Source: a virus
IMG/VR virus record: IMGVR_UViG_3300047510_002037
Location: 20,700 to 84,699 of that record
Direction: 5' to 3' (one strand)
DNA length: 64,000 nucleotides
Part shown: positions 44-32,813 of the stretch, piece by piece
Layout of the letters: each line of letters starts with the position of its first letter
Numbering within the stretch: the stretch's first letter is position 1
Position numbers and translations under genes: made by a program
Notes under the pieces: generated by a model
Seen by the model: the letters and a program-made list of their open reading frames with translations, nothing else
The model's database searches: none
Told to the model about the DNA's origin: nothing

Positions 44-2191
44 TCAAATATTTAAATCTCTTATTGATTTAATTTGTAGTTTTAAATCATCAATTTGACC
101 TTGCTGTTCTTTAATAGCTTCGATTAATACCGAAACTATATTTTGATATGCTACAGACTTAACTCCATCGTTTTCGTGGACAAGATCTGGAAGAACTTTT
201 TCAACCTCTTGTGCGATTAATCCAATAGAATGTGTCTTATCACTCCTATAATCAAATTCAACTCCACGAAGATTTTGTACTTTTTCTAAAGCACCGTCTA
301 TTGTTTTAATATTTTCTTTTAGAGATTCATCTGAGTTCGCAGTAACTGTTCCTCCACAAACCAAGTTAGTTCCATTGAAAGTTAGGTTTGCTGAACCAAC
401 TGCTTTGTTCAAACTGTTCTTATAAAGAACTTGGTTAGCGTTACCAATAGTATCAATATCTCTACCACCAGGAATATTAATTGTAGCAGTTGTACCAACT
501 AAAGTTACACTACTTACACCAGCTCCTGTAAAATTGAGTACAGTTGCTCCAGATCCAACATAGACCCCTGCTGTAGCAACACCAACCCCTGCCTGCAATC
601 CTGTTAGTCCAGTACCATTTCCACTTATAGTTCCAATGACGGTTAAGTTACCTTGTACTGTGACATTATTAGTCAAACCAACAATTTCTCTACCACCATC
701 TCTAGTAACATCAATTTGATTTGGTGTGCCGTCAACAAATAAAACTGCTGCCCCACCCGCAGAAGTACTTGCTAAACCTACTGCTCCTGATGCAACAGTA
801 AATTCTGGAGTATTAAAAGATGCAATTCCCTTTACAGAAGATGTTGCTAGTGTATGAGTATTACTTGTTATAACTCCACTTACTCGTCCATATCCATCAA
901 CGCTTAATCCACTAATGAATGATCCTGTACCAGATGTCAGATTGCTTCTTGACGTAGCTACTGTGGCTAAATCAATGCTATCAGGATTCATTACGATTCT
1001 GGAAGAACTAGCAGTTACTGCATCGATAACGTTTCCGGTTTTTACTAAACCATCACCTGCAATAATTTCTCCAGGACTACTGAATTGTGTGAATTCGATT
1101 GCAGATACACCGATAGAAACAGTTCCTTTTGTGATAAGAACGAAACCACCACCAGCATTGACTTCACCGCCAATAACGAACGAGAACGCACCAGCAGTAA
1201 TTTCTTCAGGTTCGTCGAAGTCAACTGCTCTTGTATATTCAAACGAAGTACTTACAGTACCAACTCTAGTTACTGTATAGTAACCATTTTCAAAGGTATT
1301 TCCAAATCCAAGAGGTCCACCCTGATCTTTGATTAGAATACGATCCCCAAGAATTGGGAAATAAGTATCGATAGATGTTATACCAACATTAACACCCCAT
1401 AACTTTGCTCCAACACCGCTTGGAGATGCTGACACGTTATTATAGTACGCATTTATTGATACTGTTGATGCAGCAGATACAGCTTTCTGAACTGTTAGAC
1501 CAGCAACAGTAAAATTATCTACATATGATTTTGATGCTAGTTCTTCTGGGGCAATGGGAATAATAGTGTCTAAACTAACATATGATCTTTGAGAATAAAG
1601 ATAACTAGATATCCCAACATCTCCTACGATATCGAGAGTTCTATTCATTGATGATGTTCCAATACCAACTCTCAGTGTAGAGTCATTATAATAAAATGTT
1701 TGAGCTCCACCAAAGTCTCCATTATCATTATATTGAATTTGTCCATCAAAACCTGCTGCAGTTACTTGGTCAACAGTTATAGTAGCAATATTTCCAGATG
1801 CAGCTGCAGTTACTCCAGTACCAACAAAATTAACTGTCTTAATGCTTCCCGCAGCACCTACAATTGTGCCCTCATCTTGAACAGTAATTCCTTGGAAAGA
1901 TAAAATATCCTCAAGAGTTGTCCATTGAACCGAAGATCCGCCAACAGAAGTTAAAAGTTGGTTATTCTCCCCAGAATTCCCTTGGGAGTCATAAAGTTCT
2001 CTCCTAATTCGTATAGTTCTAGTATCAACATCGGCGGTCAAATCAAATCTACTAGTAGTTCCAATTCCAATGCTTCCACCAATGGCTACATTACCAATAA
2101 CATTTAGTACAGTCTTACCTTCACTGTAATTGCTTATACCAATACCTAGGTCTCTCTGCTTTCCTGATAAAAATCTACCGTAGTTACTCAT
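44..2191 (-). CDS. Tail fibre-like virion protein with C-terminal intramolecular chaperone (peptidase S74) domain
   Basis: G/T/S/V-rich fibre repeats; intact C-terminal S74 signature SDESLKENI...ALEKV..LRGV.F...IGLIAQEVEKVLPDLV...L.EAIKE. Confidence 0.85.
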   Translation of the reverse strand: MSNYGRFLSGKQRDLGIGISNYSEGKTVLNVIGNVAIGGSIGIGTTSRFDLTADVDTRTIRIRRELYDSQGNSGENNQLLTSVGGSSVQWTTLEDILSFQGITVQDEGTIVGAAGSIKTVNFVGTGVTAAASGNIATITVDQVTAAGFDGQIQYNDNGDFGGAQTFYYNDSTLRVGIGTSSMNRTLDIVGDVGISSYLYSQRSYVSLDTIIPIAPEELASKSYVDNFTVAGLTVQKAVSAASTVSINAYYNNVSASPSGVGAKLWGVNVGITSIDTYFPILGDRILIKDQGGPLGFGNTFENGYYTVTRVGTVSTSFEYTRAVDFDEPEEITAGAFSFVIGGEVNAGGGFVLITKGTVSIGVSAIEFTQFSSPGEIIAGDGLVKTGNVIDAVTASSSRIVMNPDSIDLATVATSRSNLTSGTGSFISGLSVDGYGRVSGVITSNTHTLATSSVKGIASFNTPEFTVASGAVGLASTSAGGAAVLFVDGTPNQIDVTRDGGREIVGLTNNVTVQGNLTVIGTISGNGTGLTGLQAGVGVATAGVYVGSGATVLNFTGAGVSSVTLVGTTATINIPGGRDIDTIGNANQVLYKNSLNKAVGSANLTFNGTNLVCGGTVTANSDESLKENIKTIDGALEKVQNLRGVEFDYRSDKTHSIGLIAQEVEKVLPDLVHENDGVKSVAYQNIVSVLIEAIKEQQGQIDDLKLQIKSIRDLNI

Positions 2192-5500: not shown

Positions 5501-7609
5501 ATTAAAACTCGTTCCAGAAAGAACATCTGATACGGTAAAATCATATCCAAGATTACCGCTTGGATATAATGCGGTGGATGGACCTCCACCAGAATCGCAT
5601 TCATAGACTAGATTTTGAAGTCTTACTCTATTTCCGACTTTAAAGTTATTATTTGCTGAGGTTTCTATAGTGGTAATACCACTTATATTATCATATGTTG
5701 CGCTGATAACATTTATTGGTGTTCCTGGGGAACCTTCTGGACACGTAAATGCAAATCCATCTAATTTTACAGAATCATATTTTTGAAGACCATGATTTGG
5801 GACTGTAACTGTAGATAATCCTGTTTTTTGATCATATATTATGTTTGTTGCTGGTATAGTTAATCCAATGGAAACTCCACCCCATGTAGAATTATTAATA
5901 ACGTTTCTAGCAATATTGAAAGAATAATCCAGTGTTTTTATTGTCTGTTCTCTTTCCAGTGGATTTTTTAGAGTATTGAGTGCAAATTCTCCAGTACTCT
6001 CATCAAAATATGTTTTACCAGCCGCAACACATTTAGAATTACCACCTCTAGTAATATCATAACAAACTGCTTTCCAAATATTTCTAATATCCCTAGAGCA
6101 CTTAAATGTATCTAAGTTTATTCCAGTAACTGTTACTATTCCCGCAGTAGATCCAGTTCCTACAGCTGTTGTAACAATACCAGCAAGATATGAAATACTA
6201 TTAGCAACACCTACACACCAACCAGTTCCTCTAACGAACTTATTCCCAGACTGATCATATTCAACTCTTGTTTGAATACGAGTCGGGTCAAATGCTTGAG
6301 TATAAGTTGATTGATAATTTGTATATTTCTCAACAGTTCCGCCAGTACTGTATGTGTGCGGAATAGATGATATTCCAACGTAGACTTTGAATGTATTTAC
6401 GCCAACATATTCTTCTACTTTAAAGAAGTATCCATACTTACCATCTGGGAAAGTATTAGTTGTAATACCAGAACCACCAGGACACGTAAACTTAACTCCA
6501 TTTAGTTTGATGATATCACCAGTTGTTACTCCATGTCCAACTGCAGTAACTGTTGATAATCCAGTTAGATTATCATAGATAAATCCAGTAATATTTGTTG
6601 TTGATCCAGATGCAACACTACCATATGGCTTATTATTGATTACGTATGTTGCAATACCTACGGCATAATTAATTGTATCAACTGTCGCCGTAGAAATTCC
6701 ATATCCGTTTATATCTACTCCCGTAATATGGAGTAAAGCCCCACCAGATGAAAAATATGAAAGTGCTGCTCCAACAGACTTTTCGTTACCTGTCGCTTTT
6801 AAATCATATGCAATGGATTTGAAAATATCTTTAATATCATCCCTACAATCTTGGTCTGTTGTTGGAACTTCAAATACGGGATTTTTATAATCAGTACTAG
6901 TCAGGAATCCAACAGCCTCACCAGCAATAAAATCTAAGTTTGCTTCTAACAATACAGCAGCATCTTGTGCTACGTGAGTTCCAGCATATCCGCTATATCC
7001 ACTTGTTAAGAATCCAACTGCTTCTCTAGCAATAAAATCTGAATTATATCTAATTAATCTAGCAGCATCAAAATATCTGTCTGGAGATACTCCTTCTAAA
7101 GGTCTAAAAGCAATAACAGCAGCACCTTCTGTAGCTGGAGGTCCAACAAAACTTAAGTCGGTAACGTGAACACCATCATTTACATGAAATAAATCTTTAT
7201 TTGAATTTTGTGGTGTTACTAAACAGTTTCTTAATTCTAATCCCTCTACCGATACATTCTTTTTAAGAAGAATTGGGTTATTTTCAATATATTGTCCAGC
7301 ATAAACTTTAATAGTATCAAATGAATTTGCTATTGCTGCAGCAGCTTTAATAGATGCTTTTGCATCTCGTTCATTTAAACCACTATTAGCATCATTTCCA
7401 TTTTTAGTTACAAATATTGTTTTACCTAATGATCCACCAGCACCAACTGCAATAACTCTGGTAGCAATTCCAACTCCACCAGTGTCTTGCTTCAAGAAGA
7501 CTTGACCATCAAATGCATTAACAGCTAATTCACCAATTAGAAGTTGAGCATTTGTTGGAACTTTGCCTTCTACTGAAGATCTTTTTAACCTAATTATTGG
7601 ATCAGACAT
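2558..7609 (-). CDS. Large tail fibre/spike protein: beta-helix scaffold with nested phycobiliprotein-like and beta-sandwich inserts
   Basis: N-terminal IRLKRS...GELAVN..DG fibre-attachment motif; pectin-lyase-like start (IFVTKNGND...DTIKVYAGQY); four helical CxRD-type repeats; late promoter upstream. Confidence 0.75.
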   Translation of the reverse strand: MSDPIIRLKRSSVEGKVPTNAQLLIGELAVNAFDGQVFLKQDTGGVGIATRVIAVGAGGSLGKTIFVTKNGNDANSGLNERDAKASIKAAAAIANSFDTIKVYAGQYIENNPILLKKNVSVEGLELRNCLVTPQNSNKDLFHVNDGVHVTDLSFVGPPATEGAAVIAFRPLEGVSPDRYFDAARLIRYNSDFIAREAVGFLTSGYSGYAGTHVAQDAAVLLEANLDFIAGEAVGFLTSTDYKNPVFEVPTTDQDCRDDIKDIFKSIAYDLKATGNEKSVGAALSYFSSGGALLHITGVDINGYGISTATVDTINYAVGIATYVINNKPYGSVASGSTTNITGFIYDNLTGLSTVTAVGHGVTTGDIIKLNGVKFTCPGGSGITTNTFPDGKYGYFFKVEEYVGVNTFKVYVGISSIPHTYSTGGTVEKYTNYQSTYTQAFDPTRIQTRVEYDQSGNKFVRGTGWCVGVANSISYLAGIVTTAVGTGSTAGIVTVTGINLDTFKCSRDIRNIWKAVCYDITRGGNSKCVAAGKTYFDESTGEFALNTLKNPLEREQTIKTLDYSFNIARNVINNSTWGGVSIGLTIPATNIIYDQKTGLSTVTVPNHGLQKYDSVKLDGFAFTCPEGSPGTPINVISATYDNISGITTIETSANNNFKVGNRVRLQNLVYECDSGGGPSTALYPSGNLGYDFTVSDVLSGTSFNVNVGPSTISHSYVGGGTVTRLYTPTFGVSTATYDRITGISTIRVVGIASTTAIGFYAEPGEKVRLENLVFECNSGGGPSTALYPSGNLGYDFTILSTAIDHRYADAANLISGNRLEIIDKSLASIAIAHSDFYFPDDNQTTQYSRYKDAYRLIQQNKAEIVTSAWDTMIANPANSGVILTETKCKRDLGYFVDAVSTDIFTGGNRYSIEFIKQYFDGSGAPISNGLVGEESASIEAFQAARDLMKSAITNQLTIKDTGVSIGSSVYGDGNISVANTSSIACSDVQSTLDTLTSIITEPIGSGNLLTLNAIKINYGLFLSGESKCRRDIAYVVDALIKDLRFGTNKYIREATRAYFDANGDPLTNGLIGEEAPSVTAFNSIRDYSKLAITNQLNFKDLTITADPLTGFNTSPNSCANVKSNIDNLISILTTSVTNGNLNSYPQLFTSGRFTVNVGISTLDHTYVGGGTVNSGITTTIFPDNTHGQIFPVERIVGVNTFEVTLGGTEIQHTYYGGGSILKFRPFQTFNTQVKDLGIQIDPLVGTNQSPAGCYNVVSAMRSCIGIVTTIVGSGLTVFRSAQNPTGIKTTYPGNNGAGSEIENDPSFSPGTGQIFKGPYIRNCTNFIPDSIGMKIDGFPAEPGDEDDIGVQGSMSVDSYTQYNQNGIGVSISNGAYAQLVSIFTICCNEAIVTQSGGQCDLTNSNASFGNKGLVSRGISGVDSKSIYRKSANVAIAGSIGDIELTVSGVGTYRPYDGEVFYIGKLYYSLNSITVTNGGSGYQNANDVDITIDAPTGPNGITAQAIPTVLDGRITDITLINSGTQYETEPSITVSAPLSGGGSAGSAVVSKIDPLYYKISAATFPNAGITTITSVQGLNNNVSIGDTVYLARQSLQIATTISFEYIGAGTNIFTARPAVGGVPIQENEVVKEDGGEATYTSTDQAGNFRIGDGVVINQASGTVSGRAYLKSLFNNVTPFILALGD

Positions 7610-20488: not shown

Positions 20489-21883
20489 TTATGGATTTCC
20501 AAATGGATTTCTTTCAGAAAAGTCGATAATAGCATCACCTTCTATCTCTATATTTTTGTTATCTGCAAAAGGATCTGAAAAATCTAGTAAATCATATTTT
20601 GTTTGTGGTCTTATCATGTAAGATGCTGATGATGCAGAACCGACAATAACATCATTATTTAAAAATTCTCCAGTAAGTTGATACACTTTTAATGTATTTG
20701 TTAAAGAGTCCCAAGACTTTACTTTAGCAGTTGTGCCGCTAACTGACCCAGTTATAATTTCATTAAGTTTGTAGTTGCCAGATCCAGTCATATATGGATT
20801 TGATATTGTAATAGTTGGTGCGACAGTATATCCAATACCAGCATCAGTTATTAGAAGTTCAGTTATTGTTCCTGCAGTACTAACCACAGCTCTACCAACC
20901 GCTGTTCCAAATCCAGCTGGTGGTGCGCTAAAGGTCACTATCGGATCAACTACATATCCAGATCCAGCATTAGTTATAGTGATAATACCAACTATTCCGT
21001 CTGCAATTTCTGCGATACCTGATGCGCCACTTCCTTCTCCACCAGTAAAAGAAACTAATGGTGCTTTACTGTATCCATAACCAGTTTTAGTAAGTTCTAC
21101 TCCTTGAACTCTTAATAAGCTGGAGTCGGTCTCGCAAAAATCTGTAATACCACTTATCATAGTGGCTATTCCAGCAGATGTTCCTCCAAAAGATGGAGAT
21201 TTTGAGAAATTTACTATAGGTGCTGAAGTATAACCAGTTCCTCTGTTAGTTATAATAACTTTTCTAACACCGCCATTAACTATATTGGCGATAGCAGTTG
21301 CAGTTGATCCTGCACCAGACATAACATAAGTTCTAGTGTATCCCTCATTTACTACGTTATCATCAATCTCATCAACTCCAGTATCTAAAATTTCATTTCC
21401 ATATCTAAACAATTCGCATCTTAACTCATATACGTAATTTTTTTGTAGTTGGTAGAATGGTTTTTCGTGCTCTACAAATTTTATTTCAAATAACCTATCG
21501 CCCAATGGAAAATAAACCAAATCACCTTCTTTTGGTCTATTTGAAAGTTTTATATTTTCTTTATTCTCGATTAAAGGTTTTATATAGCTTTCATATCTTT
21601 CTTTTGATATAATTAAATTTAGATCATCTCTTGCTTCGACTCCAAATTTACTCATTAATACTCCAGCACCTTCATAACCTTCGTAAGTCTGCACATATGC
21701 TTCTATTGGATATGCATCAACAAACTCGGATTCTATTACCTCTCTTATTACAGTTTTTTCAGTAACATACATTCTTGGAATATAATAAACATCAACACCA
21801 TACATCCTCAAATGCTCATTTATCAAATCTTGCAATAGATTTTGTTCTGATTTTGAACCTTGAAGGAAAAATGGATTTAACAT
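20489..21883 (-). CDS. g14: Neck protein gp14, with inserted ITNxGxGY repeats
   Basis: LNPFFLQGS..EQ.L.QDLINE, RPKEGDLVYFP, FVEHEKPFYQL, C-terminal DFSERNPFG. Confidence 0.92.
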   Translation of the reverse strand: MLNPFFLQGSKSEQNLLQDLINEHLRMYGVDVYYIPRMYVTEKTVIREVIESEFVDAYPIEAYVQTYEGYEGAGVLMSKFGVEARDDLNLIISKERYESYIKPLIENKENIKLSNRPKEGDLVYFPLGDRLFEIKFVEHEKPFYQLQKNYVYELRCELFRYGNEILDTGVDEIDDNVVNEGYTRTYVMSGAGSTATAIANIVNGGVRKVIITNRGTGYTSAPIVNFSKSPSFGGTSAGIATMISGITDFCETDSSLLRVQGVELTKTGYGYSKAPLVSFTGGEGSGASGIAEIADGIVGIITITNAGSGYVVDPIVTFSAPPAGFGTAVGRAVVSTAGTITELLITDAGIGYTVAPTITISNPYMTGSGNYKLNEIITGSVSGTTAKVKSWDSLTNTLKVYQLTGEFLNNDVIVGSASSASYMIRPQTKYDLLDFSDPFADNKNIEIEGDAIIDFSERNPFGNP

Positions 21884-23095: not shown

Positions 23096-25606
23096 TTATG
23101 CAAGTGCAATAACTCTAAGATCTCTTATTCTTATTGGGTATGTTTGATTTCTGGATGATCCAGTTAATTTTATACCAAAAGATCTAAATGATGGTAAATT
23201 ATTAATAGTAAATTCATAATCTCTAAATGCAAGTTCATTACTTAGGAATCCAAACACATCAGTTTTTGGAACCAAAGTATCAGAATTTCCATTACTCAAT
23301 GAATCATTGATAACACTACCATTTTGTGCAATATTTGAGTATCCTGGGAATGGATAATAGATAAACTGCTCTCCAGCATTATTTGATATTCCGTAGAAAG
23401 CTCTTAGATCGCTATCTATGTTCACATATGCAGAAACAATAATTTTAATTGAGGTAGCTGGGGATTCTAGAGTTATTGGTTTTGTAGCATAAACAAATGA
23501 ATGTGGATCATCTTTTAGTGATGCAGTTCTTTCATCTGTTGCATAATTTTCAATAGGTCTATTAATTCTATTAGTAGTCAAAATAGCTGAAACTCTATCG
23601 AGGTCAATTACTGGAGAAACAAAATTACTAGTCGATGATAAATTTAAGGACATATTTAATGATTTATTTCCCTCAATACCATCCTCTGGAAGTCTATCAA
23701 GTTCGTTTATTCTAGAAGCTACAATTCTAGGTGACTTTAGATAATTTGTATCAGTCAATGAAATTTGATCAAATCCTTGATCAACAAAGGAAATTTCAGA
23801 TCCACCAACACTTCTACCAGAATATGTTCTAAGTGCTGCACTGATTGACGTTCCATTCAAAGTCATGGTTTGAACCAACGGCCTAATAATTTCAAAATTG
23901 ATATTTTGAGTTGCTTTTATGAAAGGACCGCCACAAGACTTTGTTTGTTTAAAATGTAATTCTGGTAATGTAAGTGGAGAATTATTTCTATCAAGTCCAG
24001 ATGTATTTGTATCAATTCTTACATGATAGTAATCCAAGTCAATAGGATTGGTAACAGTAGCATCTTGCAAAGTATGAACTTTGTTAATTCTTCGAAGTGA
24101 TATTCCATTCAATTCGTACTTATAGACAACAGAACCAGCTGGATATTGATATGCTGGTGTTCCATCAATACCTCTTATGATGCCTGTTAATGTATTTCCC
24201 GAAACACCTTCATATGATAAGATTTCATCACCTATTTTAATATATCCTGGATTTGTTGAACTGACTCCAATATTTTCGAATGATGAAAATATACTAAATC
24301 CTGTATCTGGATCTGTTGCAATTCCTGTTAAAGGTATATTTTGTACTGTATCACTAGCATATCCGTTAACAAGTCTGGCGAAGGGTAAATCTGAAGTTAC
24401 ATCGGATATTCTCACCAAATTTTCTGGAGCGTGCATTCCATGATTTGGATGATTTACTTTTATATGAAGTCCATCGGATTCAATATCAATATCAGATACT
24501 CTAACGTCAGATCCGGAGTTATAATTTATAGTAGTAGTAATACCTGAGTTATTTACATACTGTAAGGTATTTCCTGCACCAACTCTAAATGTTCCTTGTA
24601 CCTGATCCACTATTAACTGATTAATTCCTGATATATTAGATACGGATAATCTCAGATTTCTTCCTAAGATAGTGCTTCCCAAAGCATTTACTGTTACTAC
24701 ATCTCCAACAGTATATCCAGACCCACCATTAACAATAGTCGCTCCAACAGCAACACCTTCTTGAATAGTTATGTTTGCGGTTGCATTTTTTCCATTCCCA
24801 GTTTCTGTTACTAATGGAACATCAAAGTACGTTAATCCGCCCAAAGATGGTGTATACCCAATACCCGAATTAACAATAGTTAAATTTCCAGAAGATGCAC
24901 CAGCTGATCCAACTAAATTTGCTGTTGCATCGGAATCTTGCTGTAATATTGTATTTCCAACCTTGATATCAGGATCAGTTACAATCCTATTTAAATTTAA
25001 TCTTAATTTCTTGGAAGTAGTCTCTAAAGAATTTTTTGATAATTGCGCTATTTGATTATTCCCAAGCGCCAACTCTGGATTATAAAAATTAACATTACCA
25101 TCATTTGTGGTAAAATTAGCTCTGTATAAATTAAACTTTAAATCTTCATATTGATTTGCCGTCCAAGTCTGACCATTTTGTGATAAAAATAGAGAACCAG
25201 AACTTGGTTGAGTACTTATTATGACCTGTTTAGATTCTTGTTGATTGATAAAGGTAACATCTGGTTCTCCAATATGTGATATCCAAACAGTATATTCGCT
25301 AGAATTTGAAGTTAAAACCAAAGCATGAAACTTATCTCCCTCAAGATATACTGGAGATGGAAAATTAACTCTTGTTGGTGCGGACGCATCTGGAGATGGA
25401 AGACATTTAGTTGGTTCTAAAACAACTTCGCTGAATGGGTAAATTTCTGGGGTTGGAAATCCAAGCTTCATAGGACGAAGTTGAACCGTAACGGGAACTT
25501 GTTTATCTATAGAATAAAAGAATATATCTACAGATGTTACGAAAATACCTGCCGGGTTTTCAACATAAAATGATTGCGCTAATGGATCTTGTATTTTTGT
25601 TGCCAT
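23096..25606 (-). CDS. C-terminal part of DUF4815/VrlC-like virion structural protein, encoded as a separate gene
   Basis: Begins with DPLAQSF...GIFVTSVDIFF, which I recall as an internal motif of the large cyanophage protein following g8; ends IRDLRVIALA; own ATAAATA promoter. Confidence 0.75.
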   Translation of the reverse strand: MATKIQDPLAQSFYVENPAGIFVTSVDIFFYSIDKQVPVTVQLRPMKLGFPTPEIYPFSEVVLEPTKCLPSPDASAPTRVNFPSPVYLEGDKFHALVLTSNSSEYTVWISHIGEPDVTFINQQESKQVIISTQPSSGSLFLSQNGQTWTANQYEDLKFNLYRANFTTNDGNVNFYNPELALGNNQIAQLSKNSLETTSKKLRLNLNRIVTDPDIKVGNTILQQDSDATANLVGSAGASSGNLTIVNSGIGYTPSLGGLTYFDVPLVTETGNGKNATANITIQEGVAVGATIVNGGSGYTVGDVVTVNALGSTILGRNLRLSVSNISGINQLIVDQVQGTFRVGAGNTLQYVNNSGITTTINYNSGSDVRVSDIDIESDGLHIKVNHPNHGMHAPENLVRISDVTSDLPFARLVNGYASDTVQNIPLTGIATDPDTGFSIFSSFENIGVSSTNPGYIKIGDEILSYEGVSGNTLTGIIRGIDGTPAYQYPAGSVVYKYELNGISLRRINKVHTLQDATVTNPIDLDYYHVRIDTNTSGLDRNNSPLTLPELHFKQTKSCGGPFIKATQNINFEIIRPLVQTMTLNGTSISAALRTYSGRSVGGSEISFVDQGFDQISLTDTNYLKSPRIVASRINELDRLPEDGIEGNKSLNMSLNLSSTSNFVSPVIDLDRVSAILTTNRINRPIENYATDERTASLKDDPHSFVYATKPITLESPATSIKIIVSAYVNIDSDLRAFYGISNNAGEQFIYYPFPGYSNIAQNGSVINDSLSNGNSDTLVPKTDVFGFLSNELAFRDYEFTINNLPSFRSFGIKLTGSSRNQTYPIRIRDLRVIALA

Positions 25607-25650
25607 TTCTAGTAATTACCCTTTCTCAAGAAAACTAAATCTTATCTTAT

Positions 25651-25657
25651 TATTTAT
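25651..25657 (-). promoter_or_regulatory. Late promoter ATAAATA for the C-terminal DUF4815 half
   Basis: Intergenic, 45 nt upstream of 25606. Confidence 0.65.
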
Positions 25658-25680
25658 TTTTCAATTCTTTTATTGTTTAT

Positions 25681-26091
25681 TTATCGGAGATTCTCAAAGT
25701 GGGATACATTTTCCTCCCCATAGTTTAAGGTTAGCTCATTATCAATATTAATATCATGAATAGCATAATGCCTCATAACCTCATTTACCTTATCAATTTC
25801 ATATTCAACATTTGGATTAAAGCTGTGATTGTACATTCCACAAAATCCCATACCGATAACATGATAATCGTCGTCAAATTTATAACTGTAATCTAAACAT
25901 ATTTGAGTGTTGGTAATTTCATCCATAGGAACTTTAAAGTATGGAAATTCTTCTATAATTTCATACTTTTTTATCGGTTCTCTAGCAAAAACTCCCCACC
26001 TATGAATTTCAGATCTTTTAATTATTAATTTATTAGCAAATAAAAGATTGTCTAAGTACAAAGATCTTGAAGATTCTAAACCCGTTCTCAT
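25681..26091 (-). CDS. SET-domain protein-lysine methyltransferase
   Basis: SEIHRWGVFAREPI (motif I), YNHSFNPN (NHS motif), ELTLNYG (ELxxxY motif). Confidence 0.88.
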   Translation of the reverse strand: MRTGLESSRSLYLDNLLFANKLIIKRSEIHRWGVFAREPIKKYEIIEEFPYFKVPMDEITNTQICLDYSYKFDDDYHVIGMGFCGMYNHSFNPNVEYEIDKVNEVMRHYAIHDINIDNELTLNYGEENVSHFENLR

Positions 26092-26110
26092 ATAAACAAC
26101 CTCACTACTC

Positions 26111-26368
26111 TCATTTTTTAGTTTTCAAGTAATCCACTTCTTGTTTCAATTCTTTTATAGCTTCAATCATAACAGGAATTAACTGTTTATAATCAACCGC
26201 CAAATAACCATTTTCTTGTTCTTCAACCATCTCAGGAAATTCTTTTTGAACTTCCTGAGCGATCACACCATATGCGTTTCCAGTTACTCCTGTTATATCT
26301 TTCATTTTATCGTTCCATTCATAATATTTCCCATTTAATTTTGCAATTTTATCAAGATAAAACCCCAT
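26111..26368 (-). CDS. Stand-alone C-terminal part of a peptidase S74 chaperone domain
   Basis: LDKIAKLNGKYYEW...GVIAQEVQKEFPEMV...VDY..LIP..IEAIKELK; lacks the SDxxLK start, which lies at the end of the upstream ORF. Confidence 0.85.
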   Translation of the reverse strand: MGFYLDKIAKLNGKYYEWNDKMKDITGVTGNAYGVIAQEVQKEFPEMVEEQENGYLAVDYKQLIPVMIEAIKELKQEVDYLKTKK

Positions 26369-29300
26369 TATTTAAATTAATACTAAACAATCTATTTAGT
26401 GCATTGTCGATGGGTTGAATGTTACTCTTGAGGTTGATATCACTCATACCCATTCCACCAGAAGGTGCGGGCGATGGACGTGGTGATGGACGTGGTGATG
26501 GACGTGGCGCTGGCGCAGGCGCTGGACGTGGTGATGGACGTGGCGCTGGCGCAGGCGCTGGACGTGGTGATGGACGTGGCGCTGGTGCTGGTTGTGGTCT
26601 TGGTGATGGACGTGGTGCTGGTGGTGGGGATGGTCTTGGTGATGGTCTTGGTTCTGGTCTTGGTTGAGGTCTTGGTTGGACAACTGGGAATCCTCTTTGT
26701 TCAAACTTAACTTCACCTCTATCAGTAACTCTCTTAGCAGCTTTTGGTGTTTGTGTAATTACAAGAGAATTTTCCTTTTTACCTGAAATTTTTCCATCGT
26801 CATTAACGTCAAATTTATCAAATTTAGGTGTTCCTGGTTTTAAAGTCTTGAGAACCTTTCCACCTGGAACTGATGAATCTTTAATTCTAAGATTACCATT
26901 TTTATCTTGAACTGTTACAACATTTGAAGTTTTCTTATCTCCACCAGTTGGTTTTGCTGGTTTGCCCCTTCCAGGAGCATTTTTTGGTGGAATTGGAACT
27001 CCTGCATCTTTGTATGCCTCTCTTGCTGCCGCTGCACCTTCTCTCTTTTTAATTTGTCTAAAATTATATTCTCTCGTTTTACCATTCTTGGTTGTAAATG
27101 GAACATAAGTAACTGCAGTAACTCCTCCTCTACTTCTTGTAACGTTCTTAACTTTAAATGTCTTTGGAGTTTCTTGTACAGGAGTTTTGTTGTGAGAGAG
27201 TAAACCTTCACAAATATAAGTGTGTGCATCATCAACTGTAATCTTAACTACATCACCATCATCAACTTGTTCAATTTCTAATAGTTTTTGTTCAGAAACT
27301 ACATCTCCAATTTGCATGTTTTTGCATTCTTTCCACAATCCATCAACATAGAATTTGTGAGAATCTGAGCAAATAATTTCACTAGTTTCAAACTTCAACT
27401 TAAATTTGGTAACATTATTCACTATTTCAACATAAGTAACCTGATAATCACCATATTCAAAAGTATTTTCATGGTAAGTTTTTACAAAATCACCAATTTG
27501 AAGTTCTCCTGCCTTCTTCTGTGTGCCGTCAGCAAGTAGAATTAGGCAATTTGGATCTGGACATGGCGGTGGTGGATCTCTCTTTGGATCATTAGGACTC
27601 ACTGGAGTTGCGGTTGACCCGCGAGGTGTCGGATCCGATGGTGATGGTTCTCTAGTTGGATAAACTGCAGGTGGTGGTGCAGGTTCTGGATCATTAATAA
27701 TAGTATTAATAATTTCATCAATTTCATCAGGATCAACTTCACCACCATCATAAGGAGCTGGTATAAAAATTGGAACGACTTGAGGAGGTGGTGGTTTTAT
27801 GTTTCCAACAACTGTACTTGCTACAACCTCTGGTGGTCCAACAGAAACATCAGTTCTAGTATCAACAATTGTTGCGGTTTCAGTCTGTACATTTCTAACA
27901 GACAAAACACTTTCTTGAACTACTTTTACTGTTCCTTCAGCATAGAATTTTTCTTCTGCACCAGTTACTGGAACTCCAATAACAGTAACATTTTTCTCTT
28001 GACTAGTTATTCTAAAAAGTTTTGTTCCAGTTTCGAAAGTTGGATTAGATGGTACGTTTGGATTTGGAATAAAGAATGAACCAATAAGAGTACCGTTTCT
28101 ATCAGTAACCATTCTAATTCTAGAAACAGTAGCTACCGCTTTACTAGTTTCTCCTACTAAAGTCATTCCAACAGTAACATATCCATAATAATCACCTTGA
28201 GTTTTATTTGATAAACTGAATGTATCTACGTTTAATATTGTTGAAGATGAAGAATATGTATCAGGAACCAGTGTAGATGTATTATATGGATTTGTTATAA
28301 AAATATCTTCCGGGACATTATATGGACCATATTTGTGTGCAGCTGCTGCAACTCTAAATCTAATAAATTTATCTTCAAGCGGAGTAATACCATTTCCACT
28401 TTGAATTGGTGATGTGTTTAATGTCTTAACATTTTCTCCAACTTGGAACACTCCACTAACCATTTGAATTTCTAATAACTTTGGTACAATGTAACGATTA
28501 ACATCTACCTTATCAAAAAATGCATATACTTCAGTAAGTGGTTTTAATCTCTTAGCAGTAAATTCTATATTTCTTGATCTCATTGCTGGGATAAGATCTG
28601 AACTTACAGTCACTTCTCCTACTTTGATACTTTCAAAGCTCTCTCTTTCTTTATATGCAACTCCAGTTTTTGTTGAAGTTCCGGTCTTTTGTGTTACTGC
28701 TAAATCTTCTCTGATTAAATCATAACCATTAACTACTGTTCTTGAACCAGCTGGAATTTTTGTGGATCCAGTCCATACAGTCTCCCATGCTCCCCAAGTC
28801 ACGGGACCAAATCCAGTTTGTTGATTGAATTGTGACGCTGTTAGCTGAGACTGAGTTTTTGTATATTTTCCTTGAACATCAATTACTCTAGGAGTTAATT
28901 TAACTTGATCTGCCCAAACATCAGAAGATGGAACTAATTGTATACTTCCCGCATAATACGCATTTCTAAATGATGTTACTGGAGCAACTCTACTTGCATA
29001 TCCTTGAGTTATATAAGCAACTTCTTCATACTGCAAAGTTACTAATTGTCCAGTTCTCTTAACACCTCTACCAATTAGATTTTGATCAAAACGTAAATCT
29101 GAAGTTTGTGCTGGAGAAGTGCTAATTCCTAGTGTATTTTCAGTACCAAGAACTAAATCTATCTGGGTAGTGAATGGTGCTGGTCTTAACTCTCCAAGTT
29201 TTGTATCTATACTATTTTTTACATCAGTCACTTTTAATTGTGGTTCAGCTGATGAAAAGTCATCAACAAAGAAACCAGACTTAAAGCGATTTAATCCATT

Positions 29301-32300
29301 TGCATCTCCAATAAACAAATTAGCAGTATCGCTTTCTAATAGTGAAAGTGATGTATAAAACTCTAAGTTTTTTATTCTATTCTCTAAGTCACGGATATCT
29401 TTCATTTGATATCTCTTATATTCAGCTAAATTAATATTAGCTTGAGATACGTCGCAGAGATATGCTGGTAATGATATTGTAGCAATTTCCAGTGATTCTG
29501 GTTTTCCTAAAGGAATTCTTGGATTTTCGGATGCTTCACCCTGAACTAAATGAAATTGTCCGGTTCTATCTAAAAATATTCTATCTATTCTTGGAAGATA
29601 ATATGAATAATTTAGAACAATAGATTCATCAGATGTAGCTATCGGATTTGTTGCTGAATTGTTATAATCAGCATCAATCCTTCTTCCAAAAAATTCAAAT
29701 GAAGAGAATGCGTTTTCCTGTACTATGTACTCATTAACTCTTGGCCTGATATCGATTATATCAGAATGTCGGATACCATTAGTTGATGGTATATCACAAT
29801 AATCATAATCAGAATAAGAATTTACTGTTGTAATATCACCATCATCAGATGTATTATAAGTTGCGTGCTCAAAATATATTTTTAATTTTCTAGTTGGCTC
29901 TTTTGCATTTGGTTTTCTAACTAATCTCGAATAATCATATAGTGTTGATCTATAACCCGAATCTAAAGTAAAATCGGAAGTTATATCATTATCAGAACCT
30001 GTTAGTGTTACAATTGTTCCCTGAACATTGCTATTCTTAAAGGTTACTCTTTCCCCTTCAGTAAAGGATATTGTATTTAAATATATAAATCCTATTCTGG
30101 AATCTGATATCCTTTCAGCATATATTGCTAAAGCACCACTTGTGCTTCCTAAAAATTCTTCTCCAATAAGAAGATCGGTTGTTTTTGCTGTATTTCCACT
30201 AAGGTTTGTTATAACCATTTTACGAATATCTGGTTCAGCAGTATCATCCGATTGATACACACCGTATATTTTTGTAACATCTGGCCAATTTAATGATATT
30301 TCCTCATCCTGAACTCTAGATCCATATGGGAAATTACCAAACTGAAGTCCATCATTACTTGTAGTTGTTCCTATACCAGAATAGGAATACTTTGATTTAT
30401 CTATTATAATAGATTTTATTTTATTTTTTATTTTTTTCTTAGATTTTACCTTTGTTTTCGTTAATGTTGCTAATAAGGTTCCCGTAACATTCGTACCTAA
30501 TCCAACAATTGTTACTTCCCTATTTCCATCAGAAAATGCAAACTTATCTGAACTAAGTGGTTCTATAGTTCCATCATCTCTTGTTAAAACATATCTTTCT
30601 TCATCAAAAGGAAGAAAAATTCCATTACTTCCAGCTGAAATTGTATTAGTTTGATTATTTGTTATAGAAACGTCAAAAGATTTCTTTACAGTCAGAGAAC
30701 CATCGAGAACATCTACATTTGAAACGAATCTCTTTGGTAATGTTGTGTATAAAGTGCTATCGAGAGAATTTTGCAGAGAAGATTTTAGTACTCTAAAATC
30801 TGATGGTGTTATTTGTGATGCGGGTAGAATTCCATTGCATAGTCCAGTAACAGTTTGAACCGAACTAATTGTTATTGTATTTGTAGAAACACTTACTACT
30901 TTAGAGTATGTTATATCCTGATAGGATGGATTTGAATAGGCAACAATATTTCCTTCAAAAACATTATTAGTAAATGAATAATTAGAAGATCTTACTGTGG
31001 ATATACCTCCACTAGATGGAGTAATCGTTACTTGCCCAACATTTAGTGCAGGAGACTGCAATACATCAGCTGTAAATGGATATCCATTATCATTTAGTGC
31101 ATATATGGATTTTACATCAGATACAGAATACTGTTTTGTCGAAGTTGTTACTCTAGTATCCTCTATACCATCATATATCAATTTTTCTCCAATAGAAAAT
31201 TTACCCCTTACATTGTAAGCAGTGATAATACCTGAATTTGTTACTGAATATCTTAGGAAAGCGGTTGCCCCACTTGCTTTTCCTTTGATATGAGTTGGTA
31301 CTTGTAAAGATAATGGCTCATTAATTGTAATATCAACATATGGATGGATGTCATATAATGATACATCCCATTGATTTAAGTCTGGGAATGCCGCATTGTA
31401 ACTTCCGGATTCTAATGCATAATCATATATTCTACATATACCAATTTCTTTACCTGGAGCAGTTGACTGAGATGCTCCCACTCTTTCATCTCTAAGAGAT
31501 AAGAAGAACGATGTTGATAAACCTAATGTTGGACTACCATATACTCTATTTACAGTAAATGTTGGCCCAGTGTAATTAATTACACCTTGATTGTTTAATG
31601 TTCTAATGGTTCTTGGTTTTTCAAAATCTAATAAAACCGGAGAAATTACATCAACTTCATATCCCTTTATATAAGCTTTTAACGGAGATATTTTGTATAT
31701 TCCCTTATTATCTGATGGTTTGAAACCCATATCAGTGGATTCTGTTTCAAAATATAAACCATCATTACCTTTTCTATTATTTAAGGAATGTCTCACAAAT
31801 AATGAAGGTGCTTTTACATAAAAATCACCTGATTGGTCATAGGTTCTTCTGGCTAGTTCATCTGCAATTTTGGTATATTCTGTATCTCTATTCTGAGTTA
31901 TTAGCACTCCATTCCTAACTTCCATTATTTGGACAAATTTTTCCAAATTGGTGGAATTAAGTGGTAATTTTATTAGTTCTGCCGTTATTGAAAATCTATC
32001 TGCTCCAGGTGCAGAAAAATTTGTAAATCCTTGGGCGTTGTCTACTAGGTTATCGTCATCATTATATGTTACAATTTCTTCACTTATTTCAAAACCAATT
32101 TTATATGATGGTTGATTTGTATATTGATCTAGAAGTAAGAATTCACTATCTACACTAACAAAATGCCCTCTAAGATAATATACGCCATCTTCAATTTTAA
32201 CACCAGATCCAATTCCATTTGGATTTCCTTCAACAGTTAGAGCAACTCTAGATCCAGGTTGAAATACTATTGGATTTTCCAAATCAGGATCAATTCCATC

Positions 32301-32813
32301 ATCCTCATTTTCTGCTGTTGAATCATCAGTAGTGTCTGATGTATCAACTAGTTCTTCCACAATAATTGCTTCATTTGGAGCAAAACCAGTGAAAGATGAT
32401 GATCTGCTATCAGAACTTAAAAATGATATGTATAGTGTATTAATATTCCTAGTTGAATCATCTTCGGGAAGTATTCCCATTACAACTGCTCTTATTCCAC
32501 TCTTAGCTCCTCGTATTGTTTTATTCAATAAAGAATACATGTAGGAATCAATGGGAGTTCCAAGATAACTTGCCTGAAGTAATACGCAAGGTAAATCTTG
32601 AATATAAGTCGCTCCGCCACCAGTAACTAATGACCCTTCCTTGAAGAAATGATTTCCAAACTCTTCAATCTGACTTTGCAGCATAGACTGCAAAGTAGTT
32701 AATTCTCTAGCTTGAACTGGATATCCAGGTTTGAATAAAACTTTATGATAATTATTGTCTCTTTTGAAATCGTCAAAATATGGAGAGATATTTAAGTCTA
32801 GTTCTTGTGGCAT
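26352..32813 (-). CDS. N-terminal part of DUF4815/VrlC-like virion protein fused to a Hint domain, a basic region, a Pro-Arg repeat and an S74 N-fragment
   Basis: MPQ..DLNISPYFDDF...KVLFKPGYPVQARELT; NRFKSGFFVDDF; follows g8. Confidence 0.85.
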   Translation of the reverse strand: MPQELDLNISPYFDDFKRDNNYHKVLFKPGYPVQARELTTLQSMLQSQIEEFGNHFFKEGSLVTGGGATYIQDLPCVLLQASYLGTPIDSYMYSLLNKTIRGAKSGIRAVVMGILPEDDSTRNINTLYISFLSSDSRSSSFTGFAPNEAIIVEELVDTSDTTDDSTAENEDDGIDPDLENPIVFQPGSRVALTVEGNPNGIGSGVKIEDGVYYLRGHFVSVDSEFLLLDQYTNQPSYKIGFEISEEIVTYNDDDNLVDNAQGFTNFSAPGADRFSITAELIKLPLNSTNLEKFVQIMEVRNGVLITQNRDTEYTKIADELARRTYDQSGDFYVKAPSLFVRHSLNNRKGNDGLYFETESTDMGFKPSDNKGIYKISPLKAYIKGYEVDVISPVLLDFEKPRTIRTLNNQGVINYTGPTFTVNRVYGSPTLGLSTSFFLSLRDERVGASQSTAPGKEIGICRIYDYALESGSYNAAFPDLNQWDVSLYDIHPYVDITINEPLSLQVPTHIKGKASGATAFLRYSVTNSGIITAYNVRGKFSIGEKLIYDGIEDTRVTTSTKQYSVSDVKSIYALNDNGYPFTADVLQSPALNVGQVTITPSSGGISTVRSSNYSFTNNVFEGNIVAYSNPSYQDITYSKVVSVSTNTITISSVQTVTGLCNGILPASQITPSDFRVLKSSLQNSLDSTLYTTLPKRFVSNVDVLDGSLTVKKSFDVSITNNQTNTISAGSNGIFLPFDEERYVLTRDDGTIEPLSSDKFAFSDGNREVTIVGLGTNVTGTLLATLTKTKVKSKKKIKNKIKSIIIDKSKYSYSGIGTTTSNDGLQFGNFPYGSRVQDEEISLNWPDVTKIYGVYQSDDTAEPDIRKMVITNLSGNTAKTTDLLIGEEFLGSTSGALAIYAERISDSRIGFIYLNTISFTEGERVTFKNSNVQGTIVTLTGSDNDITSDFTLDSGYRSTLYDYSRLVRKPNAKEPTRKLKIYFEHATYNTSDDGDITTVNSYSDYDYCDIPSTNGIRHSDIIDIRPRVNEYIVQENAFSSFEFFGRRIDADYNNSATNPIATSDESIVLNYSYYLPRIDRIFLDRTGQFHLVQGEASENPRIPLGKPESLEIATISLPAYLCDVSQANINLAEYKRYQMKDIRDLENRIKNLEFYTSLSLLESDTANLFIGDANGLNRFKSGFFVDDFSSAEPQLKVTDVKNSIDTKLGELRPAPFTTQIDLVLGTENTLGISTSPAQTSDLRFDQNLIGRGVKRTGQLVTLQYEEVAYITQGYASRVAPVTSFRNAYYAGSIQLVPSSDVWADQVKLTPRVIDVQGKYTKTQSQLTASQFNQQTGFGPVTWGAWETVWTGSTKIPAGSRTVVNGYDLIREDLAVTQKTGTSTKTGVAYKERESFESIKVGEVTVSSDLIPAMRSRNIEFTAKRLKPLTEVYAFFDKVDVNRYIVPKLLEIQMVSGVFQVGENVKTLNTSPIQSGNGITPLEDKFIRFRVAAAAHKYGPYNVPEDIFITNPYNTSTLVPDTYSSSSTILNVDTFSLSNKTQGDYYGYVTVGMTLVGETSKAVATVSRIRMVTDRNGTLIGSFFIPNPNVPSNPTFETGTKLFRITSQEKNVTVIGVPVTGAEEKFYAEGTVKVVQESVLSVRNVQTETATIVDTRTDVSVGPPEVVASTVVGNIKPPPPQVVPIFIPAPYDGGEVDPDEIDEIINTIINDPEPAPPPAVYPTREPSPSDPTPRGSTATPVSPNDPKRDPPPPCPDPNCLILLADGTQKKAGELQIGDFVKTYHENTFEYGDYQVTYVEIVNNVTKFKLKFETSEIICSDSHKFYVDGLWKECKNMQIGDVVSEQKLLEIEQVDDGDVVKITVDDAHTYICEGLLSHNKTPVQETPKTFKVKNVTRSRGGVTAVTYVPFTTKNGKTREYNFRQIKKREGAAAAREAYKDAGVPIPPKNAPGRGKPAKPTGGDKKTSNVVTVQDKNGNLRIKDSSVPGGKVLKTLKPGTPKFDKFDVNDDGKISGKKENSLVITQTPKAAKRVTDRGEVKFEQRGFPVVQPRPQPRPEPRPSPRPSPPPAPRPSPRPQPAPAPRPSPRPAPAPAPRPSPRPAPAPAPRPSPRPSPRPSPAPSGGMGMSDINLKSNIQPIDNALNRLFSINLNNGVLS
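26465..26680. repeat. GC-rich coding tandem repeat (12-bp and 36-bp units) encoding PRPSPRPAPAPA
   Basis: Unit ggacgtggtgatggacgtggcgctggcgcaggcgct repeated, plus shorter degenerate units. Confidence 0.95.
27189..27563 (-). other. Hint (intein-like/BIL) autoprocessing domain, residues 1751-1875
   Basis: C1-PDPNCLILLADG...ELQIGD; block B CSDSHKF; block F/G VVKITVDDAHTYICEGLLSHN, followed by Lys. Confidence 0.88.

Follow-up and report, generated by a model that had tools for sequence, protein, structure and literature searches.

How can a large virion protein that other phages encode in a single gene be made from two genes with an apparently self-processing block between them? This question is raised by a stretch of 64,000 nucleotides (hereafter the window) from the IMG/VR virus record IMGVR_UViG_3300047510_002037 (positions 20,700 to 84,699), part of an 84.7-kb viral contig with an estimated completeness of about 40%. 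In the window, a homologue of the VrlC/DUF4815 protein family is divided into an N-half, which carries a Hint domain, a Lys/Arg-rich segment and the first part of an S74 chaperone domain, and a separately encoded C-half. The remainder of S74 and a SET gene lie between them. The answer that we favour, and to which we give somewhat better than even prospects, is a two-gene VrlC with a tethered, swappable end-module, an S74 chaperone acting in trans, an optional self-cleaving Hint domain and a SET gene that is a mere passenger.

VrlC encoded in two genes

All genes of the region, including the four open reading frames (ORFs) P0001 to P0004, are located on the minus strand. The two VrlC ORFs are separated by 745 nt containing the S74 C-piece and SET genes, and the locus is composed as follows.

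26352-32813, minus strand: P0001, the VrlC-N ORF, 2153 residues
27744..32813, minus strand: conserved core of VrlC-N (P0001 residues 1 to ~1690), DUF4815, N part of the tripod-like baseplate protein
27564..27743, minus strand: Tether 1, an acidic and then Pro-rich low-complexity linker (residues ~1691-1750, read from the sequence)
27189..27563, minus strand: Hint domain, type-A BIL-like (bacterial intein-like; residues 1751-1875)
26643..27188, minus strand: basic end-module (residues 1876-2057)
26445..26642, minus strand: Tether 2, a (P-R-P-S/A-P)n repeat linker ending in GGMGM (residues 2058-2123)
26352..26444, minus strand: S74 N-piece fused to VrlC-N (residues 2124-2153 and stop), with Ser2124, Asp2125 and Lys2129 followed by the first helix
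26111-26368, minus strand: P0002, the S74 C-piece gene, 85 residues, in the +1 frame with a 17-nt overlap at the VrlC-N stop
25681-26091, minus strand: P0003, the SET gene, 136 residues
25651..25684, minus strand: two ATAAATA late-promoter-like cores upstream of VrlC-C
23096-25606, minus strand: P0004, the VrlC-C gene, 836 residues, beginning at the DPLAQSF motif

Taken together, P0001 and P0004 are homologous to the VrlC family phrog_358 over its full length, spread over two ORFs instead of one: P0001 matches positions 1-1410 (E = 0) and P0004, whose first residues are MATKIQDPLAQSF, positions 1421-2055 (E = 3e-186). P0001 also matches DUF4815 (E = 8e-56, 189.9 bits at a cut-off of 30), and both proteins find the same 1152-residue DUF4815 chain of Staphylococcus phage 812 in PDB entry 9EUF, P0001 at chain residues 79-203 and P0004 at residues 789-945. 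The homology of VrlC-N to its relatives stops at residues 1645-1691. Single-ORF versions of 2519-2624 residues are found in S-SCSM1, S-SM2 and P-TIM68, where a linker precedes DPLAQSF; in S-SCSM1 this linker is a long (PRPx)n run, and P0004 is 50% identical to the C part of the S-SCSM1 protein. A first scan of IMG/VR with P0004 likewise returned fused genes at all loci with enough upstream DNA, L005 excepted. The assumption of the first-pass annotation that this protein is usually one ORF is therefore right for the three named phages and the fused IMG/VR loci, but it does not apply to a large uncultured clade. Split VrlC genes occur on at least 36 IMG/VR contigs besides the window's own, nearly all with the usual gene order VrlC-N, S74 N-piece, S74 C-piece, (SET), VrlC-C, and all 30 split rows in the tree of VrlC-C form one clade, with a value of 82 in the Shimodaira-Hasegawa-like approximate likelihood-ratio test (SH-aLRT). 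The gene split and the two-piece S74 are an old, conserved and clade-wide design, and the idea that a single cassette had broken the gene in this phage has to be given up.

The contig itself appears sound. L005, a second contig, matches it over 13 kb with 99.2% identity (95 mismatches) and has an identical layout and S74 junction; since it is a diverged copy, an assembly artefact is unlikely. The differences between the two contigs include a 3-nt indel in Tether 1, none at all in the Hint domain over 375 nt, and just two in P0002, both synonymous. Reading of the ORFs and profile searches likewise confirmed the coordinates, residue numbers and ORF layout given by the first-pass annotation. Near and distant DNA searches found no close relative among cultured phages, and the literature searched contained no description of a split VrlC or of a split S74, an absence that is weak evidence.

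The neighbourhood of the locus gives a hint regarding the function of VrlC. Gene numbering in phage 812 places gp119, the trimeric tripod protein, immediately behind gp118, the gp8-like arm segment (PMC13433997), and in the window P0001 also comes after a gp8-like ORF. Because of this shared gene order, VrlC is most likely a homologue of the tripod protein gp119. The C-half seems to be transcribed on its own account, as had been proposed at first pass: ATAAATA cores are situated 45 and 72 nt upstream of P0004, and 27 of the 28 distinct split loci have a core at a distance of 25-50 nt upstream of VrlC-C. The window as a whole contains 16 copies of ATAAATA, all on the minus (coding) strand and for the most part shortly before a gene start, with about 39 expected on both strands. 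This distribution is consistent with a T4-type late-promoter core that is used throughout the structural operon.

Some loci deviate from the common arrangement. On L177 (936-9608, plus strand), a fused VrlC of 2890 residues that is sister to P-TIM68 carries a Hint domain of the same family as the window's in an Arg/Gly-rich linker just before DPLAQTF; if this Hint cleaves, VrlC would be split post-translationally where other phages split the gene. In L098, L101 and L102, the ORF with the S74 N-piece has just 480-580 residues and its VrlC-N homology starts about 260 residues in, so that the N-half may be broken again upstream or the contigs may contain errors. At L176:8043-11896, the VrlC-C match falls into two pieces with a frame change and the ORF with the basic module is severed from VrlC-N, which probably reflects degradation of this copy or an error in assembly. 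An EF-hand-like loop that had been considered in the locus was unsupported (Pfam E = 0.046) and is not kept in relatives.

An S74 chaperone in two pieces

The gene boundary runs through the S74 domain. P0002 matches Pfam S74 (PF13884) at profile positions 17-57 (E = 1.9e-9, 38.1 bits at a cut-off of 22), and the N-piece supplies roughly profile positions 1-24 according to the alignment, so that a stop/start junction lies inside a domain that is otherwise a single-chain, intramolecular one. The bond Met2123|Ser2124 opens the SDINLK sequence at the end of P0001, and the Ser-Lys dyad of S74 (S-D-x-x-x-K) is kept as Ser2124 and Lys2129; it is invariant in the S74 alignment and present in all split loci. 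A search with P0002 yielded 29 loci in which the N-protein ends 22-30 residues past the catalytic Ser and an ORF of about 85 residues holds the remaining S74. The Ser-Asp...Lys motif ends the N-protein in all 29 of them and also in the alignment of L166-L176, and a search with P0011, a relative with the basic module, added 11 further loci with a split S74.

The stop codon of the N-piece and the start codon of the C-piece are tightly coupled in all relatives, an ATGA overlap being the commonest form. The frame of the C-piece relative to the N-piece differs among them and can be +1, +2 (-1) or 0, and in L101 an in-frame stop-AAA-ATG stands between the pieces. These variable relations, together with the in-frame stop, exclude a conserved programmed frameshift, and the arrangement points to two polypeptides made via translational coupling. 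Aligned with intact S74, the split form shows an insertion of 14 residues, which arises from the occurrence of the first helix in each of the two pieces. The ratio of non-synonymous to synonymous substitution rates (dN/dS) is 0.19 for the N-piece (22 codons) and 0.07 for the C-piece (72 codons) at a dS of about 1.2-1.3, which indicates that both pieces are under purifying selection. Within the 17-nt overlap, the differences between the window and L085 are synonymous in the P0002 frame. A read-through version of the domain (from L101, with TAA read as Gly) was modelled by AlphaFold2 (AF2) with a mean predicted local distance difference test score (pLDDT) of 71 and gave a weak match to the MyRF ICA domain (E = 0.09).

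Two further proteins with S74 ends should be mentioned. P0005 (window 44-2191, minus strand) is a fibre-like protein of 715 residues ending in an unsplit S74 that is 37% identical to P0002; hence, this phage possesses the split and the unsplit form. On L109/L110, an ORF of 494 residues ending near 5990 encodes a Gly-rich, fibre-like protein without VrlC homology, whose end is made up of a Hint domain with Ile at +1, followed by a Pro linker, poly-Gly and a split S74 with its C-piece encoded separately. The combination of Hint and split-S74 end is thus not confined to VrlC.

Hint domain, end-module and SET gene

The Hint domain of P0001 begins with Cys1751 in C-P-D-P and continues with the block-B residues Ser1816..His1819, His1864 and the terminal His1874-Asn1875, which is followed by Lys1876. 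Eleven homologues agree without exception in Cys1 (C-P-x-P), in the block-B Ser..His, in the block-F His-Thr-Tyr and in the terminal Ser-His-Asn; Cys1751 is the conserved cysteine, Cys1756 being replaced in homologues by Met or Ala. The +1 residue is Lys in 9 of 10 homologues and Ile in L109, where it was read from the ORF as the alignment row ends at Asn. With Lys1876, the domain resembles type-A BILs, which have no nucleophile at +1 and in which cleavage products outweigh splicing, though splicing is possible (PMC4031507). It departs from canonical inteins in the same residue and in its insertion into a low-complexity tether. Against Pfam PT-HINT (PF07591) the window domain reached E = 1e-4 and 23.0 bits at a gathering score of 27.7, and other members of the family scored above this threshold (P0007, 36.6; P0011, 29.6; P0013, 54.9 bits). 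The best sequence match in the PDB was the gp41-1 intein (6QAZ; E = 2e-4 by phmmer). An AF2 model of the domain (pLDDT 88.4, predicted TM-score 0.80) was compared with known structures by Foldseek, which returned BIL2 (6Y75; E = 4.7e-11, TM-score 0.79), the gp41-1 intein (1.7e-9) and the Clostridium thermocellum BIL (7.7e-9). Judged by the modelled Hint fold, Cys1, the block-B His, the terminal His-Asn and the Lys at +1, it is a type-A BIL-like domain.

Next to one and the same basic module, the number of Hint copies varies from none (L173-L176) over one (L166-L171) to two (L172), with the edges of the indels at approximately Cys1..Asn. Moreover, the family comprises at least 242 metagenomic proteins and is also found inside Pro-rich repeats of unrelated virion proteins. 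It can even form the terminal domain, as in the VrlC-N protein P0103 (13 residues after it) and the RCC1-repeat protein P0045 (5 residues after it). This pattern marks the Hint domain as an optional, laterally moving element. In the VrlC-C tree, the Hint-free loci are nested among Hint-bearing ones, which suggests that the domain was lost in the L173-L176 lineages. Among the metagenomic proteins of the family, P0013 and P0027 (560-610 residues) consist of 2-3 tandem Hint copies with Pro/Arg linkers and an Arg-rich tail; one of these copies has an insertion of about 40 residues, and P0027 occurs on 24 contigs, including Tara samples.

The slot between the VrlC-N core and the S74 Ser is filled by at least five unrelated segment types among the relatives. 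The commonest content is a Pro-rich linker, a module of about 110 residues with a YYNYG motif and a poly-Gly linker, and at least four other unrelated segments occur; the linker equivalent to Tether 2 is poly-Gly or Arg/Pro-rich. In P0001, the 248 residues between Hint and S74 include 51 Pro, 27 Lys and 24 Arg, and the basic module at residues 1876-2050 counts 39 Lys and Arg versus 16 Asp and Glu. Searches of Pfam, PHROG and the ESM Atlas gave no usable family match for this module, and 1.84 billion representative proteins yielded just three matches. Its identity with the modules at the same position in L166-L176 is 38-42%, and the window also groups with these loci in the VrlC-C tree (support 100). 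Both observations argue that the basic module is inherited vertically within one sub-clade. From its charge, one might guess that it binds a surface or a polyanion. A homology of the basic segment to the YYNYG end-module was considered and rejected: against the hidden Markov model of that module, the window did not score above 200 shuffles, and pairwise z values were mostly below 2.5, with just L087 reaching 4.7 over a low-complexity alignment. In L087-L103 and L111, a conserved end-module of about 100 residues stands between the Pro linker and a poly-Gly stretch of up to about 100 residues, with the consensus T-x-Y-Y-N-Y-G...G-A-x-R-L-K-E...A-G-L...D-M-x-A-K...N-N-I-Q-V-S-T-G-N.

P0003 matches Pfam SET (PF00856; E = 4.4e-12, 46.8 bits at a cut-off of 22.4), and the gene is intact. 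Its best solved relative is the vSET protein of PBCV-1 (1N3J; E = 1.2e-11), to which it aligns in the motifs NHSxxPN and ELTLNY. SET occupies the position between the VrlC halves in L087-L097 and in the window lineage (window and L086), and in no other lineage of the set. It is absent from all 11 basic-module relatives, and the other SET-bearing loci carry different modules. Hence, the presence of SET does not track the basic module, and the comparison of loci lends no support to an action of SET on it. The S74 C-piece of the window is 85-89% identical to those of L087-L089, which have the same -17-nt junction, and only 60-64% to those of the sister clade. This pattern points to a probable exchange between lineages, in which the S74 and SET block recombined in from another split-VrlC lineage at a low-complexity tether.

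Weighing the readings

The favoured explanation builds on the observed architecture, its conservation and the intact catalytic residues. In this two-gene VrlC, a trimeric, tripod-like baseplate protein would be made from two late genes. Behind its core, VrlC-N would carry a tether, a swappable end-module (here basic, 180 residues), another tether and the initial 30 residues of S74, while the remaining 85 S74 residues would be translated as a separate polypeptide via termination-reinitiation coupling. The two S74 pieces are predicted to reassemble on the trimerising N-half, to help its folding and then to cut at Met2123|Ser2124, by which the chaperone would be removed. The main activity of the Hint domain would be self-cleavage at Pro1750|Cys1751 and Asn1875|Lys1876, with splicing being minor at most; such cleavage would separate the basic module from the N-half in its mature form. 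The SET gene would be a passenger at this position, probably brought in together with S74 by recombination.

Several points weigh against this explanation. The window Hint domain scores below the Pfam PT-HINT gathering score. The read-through S74 model is of moderate quality, its match to the MyRF ICA domain is weak, and it does not reveal how two pieces would pack. The single origin of the split is moderately supported by the SH-aLRT of 82, and the assignment of VrlC to the tripod and not to the arm scaffold draws on gene order and not on a named chain. Cleavage at all three sites, the reassembly of the S74 pieces and the trimeric state are steps that we infer. Finally, the order of events matters, because a cut by the Hint domain before assembly would put the N-half out of reach of the S74 chaperone.

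The alternative that survives best, although we regard it as rather unlikely, sees the Hint domain as a selfish or neutral insert that parasitises low-complexity linkers and either splices itself out by the type-A BIL route or remains as a harmless bead, the module staying on VrlC-N just as it does in relatives that lack the Hint. It accounts for the sporadic distribution and the tandem duplications (L172; P0013/P0027), for indel edges at approximately Cys1..Asn and for the independent acquisition by VrlC lineages such as L177, which groups with P-TIM68, and type-A BILs are able to splice (PMC4031507). However, cleavage dominates in the characterised members of this class (PMC4031507), and where Hint ends a protein, as in P0045 and P0103 with 5 and 13 residues after it, there is nothing meaningful for splicing to join. 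The strictly invariant catalytic residues also argue against a passive bead.

The first-pass annotation had proposed a toxin-like cargo slot. In this reading, Hint and S74 would free the basic peptide as a cargo that the baseplate carries or delivers to the host, and SET would methylate its lysines. Parts of this proposal were well founded. The slot before DPLAQSF is indeed variable (at least five segment types), and both flanking devices look competent for self-cleavage, with Hint residues invariant in 11 homologues and the S74 motif kept in 29/29 loci; in addition, the module is extremely rich in Lys and Arg, PT-HINT is the best Pfam match of the Hint domain, and an intact SET gene lies adjacent. 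Nevertheless, we find the cargo itself and its modification improbable. The same module exists without any Hint in L173-L176, and the copy number of 0, 1 or 2 in close relatives means that a release through two cuts is not conserved. Searches of Pfam, PHROG, the Atlas and the 1.84 billion representative proteins, among which the module has just three matches, turned up no sign of a toxin, an enzyme or an immunity function, and the module is inherited vertically with a support of 100, not polymorphic within its clade. The 11 relatives with this Lys-rich module are without SET, and the SET-bearing relatives have other modules, which also speaks against SET as a cargo-modifying enzyme.

Less probable still is a lysine-directed ligation, which we consider by analogy to BIL2 of Tetrahymena, where an isopeptide bond is formed between a lysine epsilon-amine and a C-terminus in conjunction with ubiquitin-like domains (PMC8616854). 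In that case, the Hint thioester at Pro1750 would be resolved by a lysine epsilon-amine, and the acceptor could be Lys1876, a residue of the Lys-rich module, or another virion or host-surface protein, giving an ATP-independent cross-link of the baseplate; alongside this, the S74 encoded by two genes would serve as a chaperone-protease that assembles in trans and can be detached. BIL2 is the closest solved structure (E = 4.7e-11, TM-score 0.79) and forms such bonds (PMC8616854), the Lys at +1 is nearly invariant in the family, and a very Lys-rich module follows the domain in the clade of the window. However, the sequence identity to BIL2 is just about 22%, L109 has Ile at +1, and the downstream flanks in other hosts are Pro-rich and not Lys-rich. 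A programmed +1 frameshift, a decaying pseudogene or a misassembly behind the S74 break is hardly credible: a GGG-G just before the overlap is a conceivable +1 slip site, but relatives would need a +1, a -1 or no shift and L101 has its in-frame stop followed by ATG, the duplicated helix means a 14-residue insertion compared with intact S74, both pieces are under strong purifying selection, and two diverged contigs share the junction.

Chaperone-proteases of the S74 type and intein-like Hint domains are both already known. What appears to be undescribed is an S74 that occurs naturally, in dozens of phage lineages, as a stable pair of coupled genes, as well as a Hint family hopping between the low-complexity tethers of virion proteins, in 0-3 copies and sometimes in terminal position. 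The two-gene VrlC thereby offers a testable model of how the abundant, uncultured T4-like phages of aquatic habitats might assemble and trim a giant baseplate protein and equip it with interchangeable tips. Furthermore, a trans-assembling S74 and a small (125 residues), endonuclease-free, lysine-flanked BIL could serve protein engineering, for example as removable trimerisation chaperones and as self-cleaving or ligating tags.

Comparison with known systems

The polymorphic toxins, with PT-HINT, a C-terminal toxin and an immunity gene, differ, since the segment after the window Hint has no family match and three relatives, and the S74 C-piece and SET genes lie downstream where a polymorphic toxin has its immunity gene. 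Canonical mini-inteins such as the cyanophage-like gp41-1 (6QAZ) have the same size and motifs as the window Hint; unlike them, the window domain has Lys and not Cys, Ser or Thr at +1 and resides in a linker instead of a conserved catalytic site. With PT-HINT, type-A BILs, the C. thermocellum BIL (2LWY) and the BIL2 domain from the BUBL locus of Tetrahymena (6Y75/6TMM), it shares the Hint fold, Cys1, block-B His, His-Asn, the missing +1 nucleophile, the lack of an endonuclease and the residence in variable regions (PMC4031507). Unlike BILs, however, this family lives in the low-complexity tethers of phage virion proteins with a near-invariant Lys at +1, occurs in tandem arrays and as terminal domains, and has no toxin domain downstream.

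P0003 agrees with vSET (A612L) of the chlorella virus PBCV-1 (1N3J) in being a minimal SET protein of about 120-136 residues with aligned catalytic motifs, but it belongs to a phage late operon, where it separates the halves of a baseplate gene. The Peptidase_S74 systems, namely the endosialidase C-terminal intramolecular chaperone domain (CIMCD), T5 pb1 and MyRF ICA (7DC3), share with the window the S-D-x-x-x-K dyad, the GVIAQEV core and the C-terminal helix, and also the position at the C-terminal end of a trimeric virion protein, a state that would apply to the window protein by inference; unlike them, the window S74 is divided at a stop/start junction with its first helix in both pieces. 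The single-chain VrlC/DUF4815 proteins (S-SCSM1 gp19, S-SM2 VrlC, P-TIM68 and, distantly, the 9EUF chain of phage 812, which is probably the tripod protein gp119) are a further known system. They occupy the same position after gp8, show end-to-end homology to both halves and possess a flexible, often Pro-rich linker before DPLAQSF that resembles the tether of the window. Unlike these fused forms, the window has two genes with a separate late promoter, and its N-half has gained an end-module, a Hint domain and a piece of S74.

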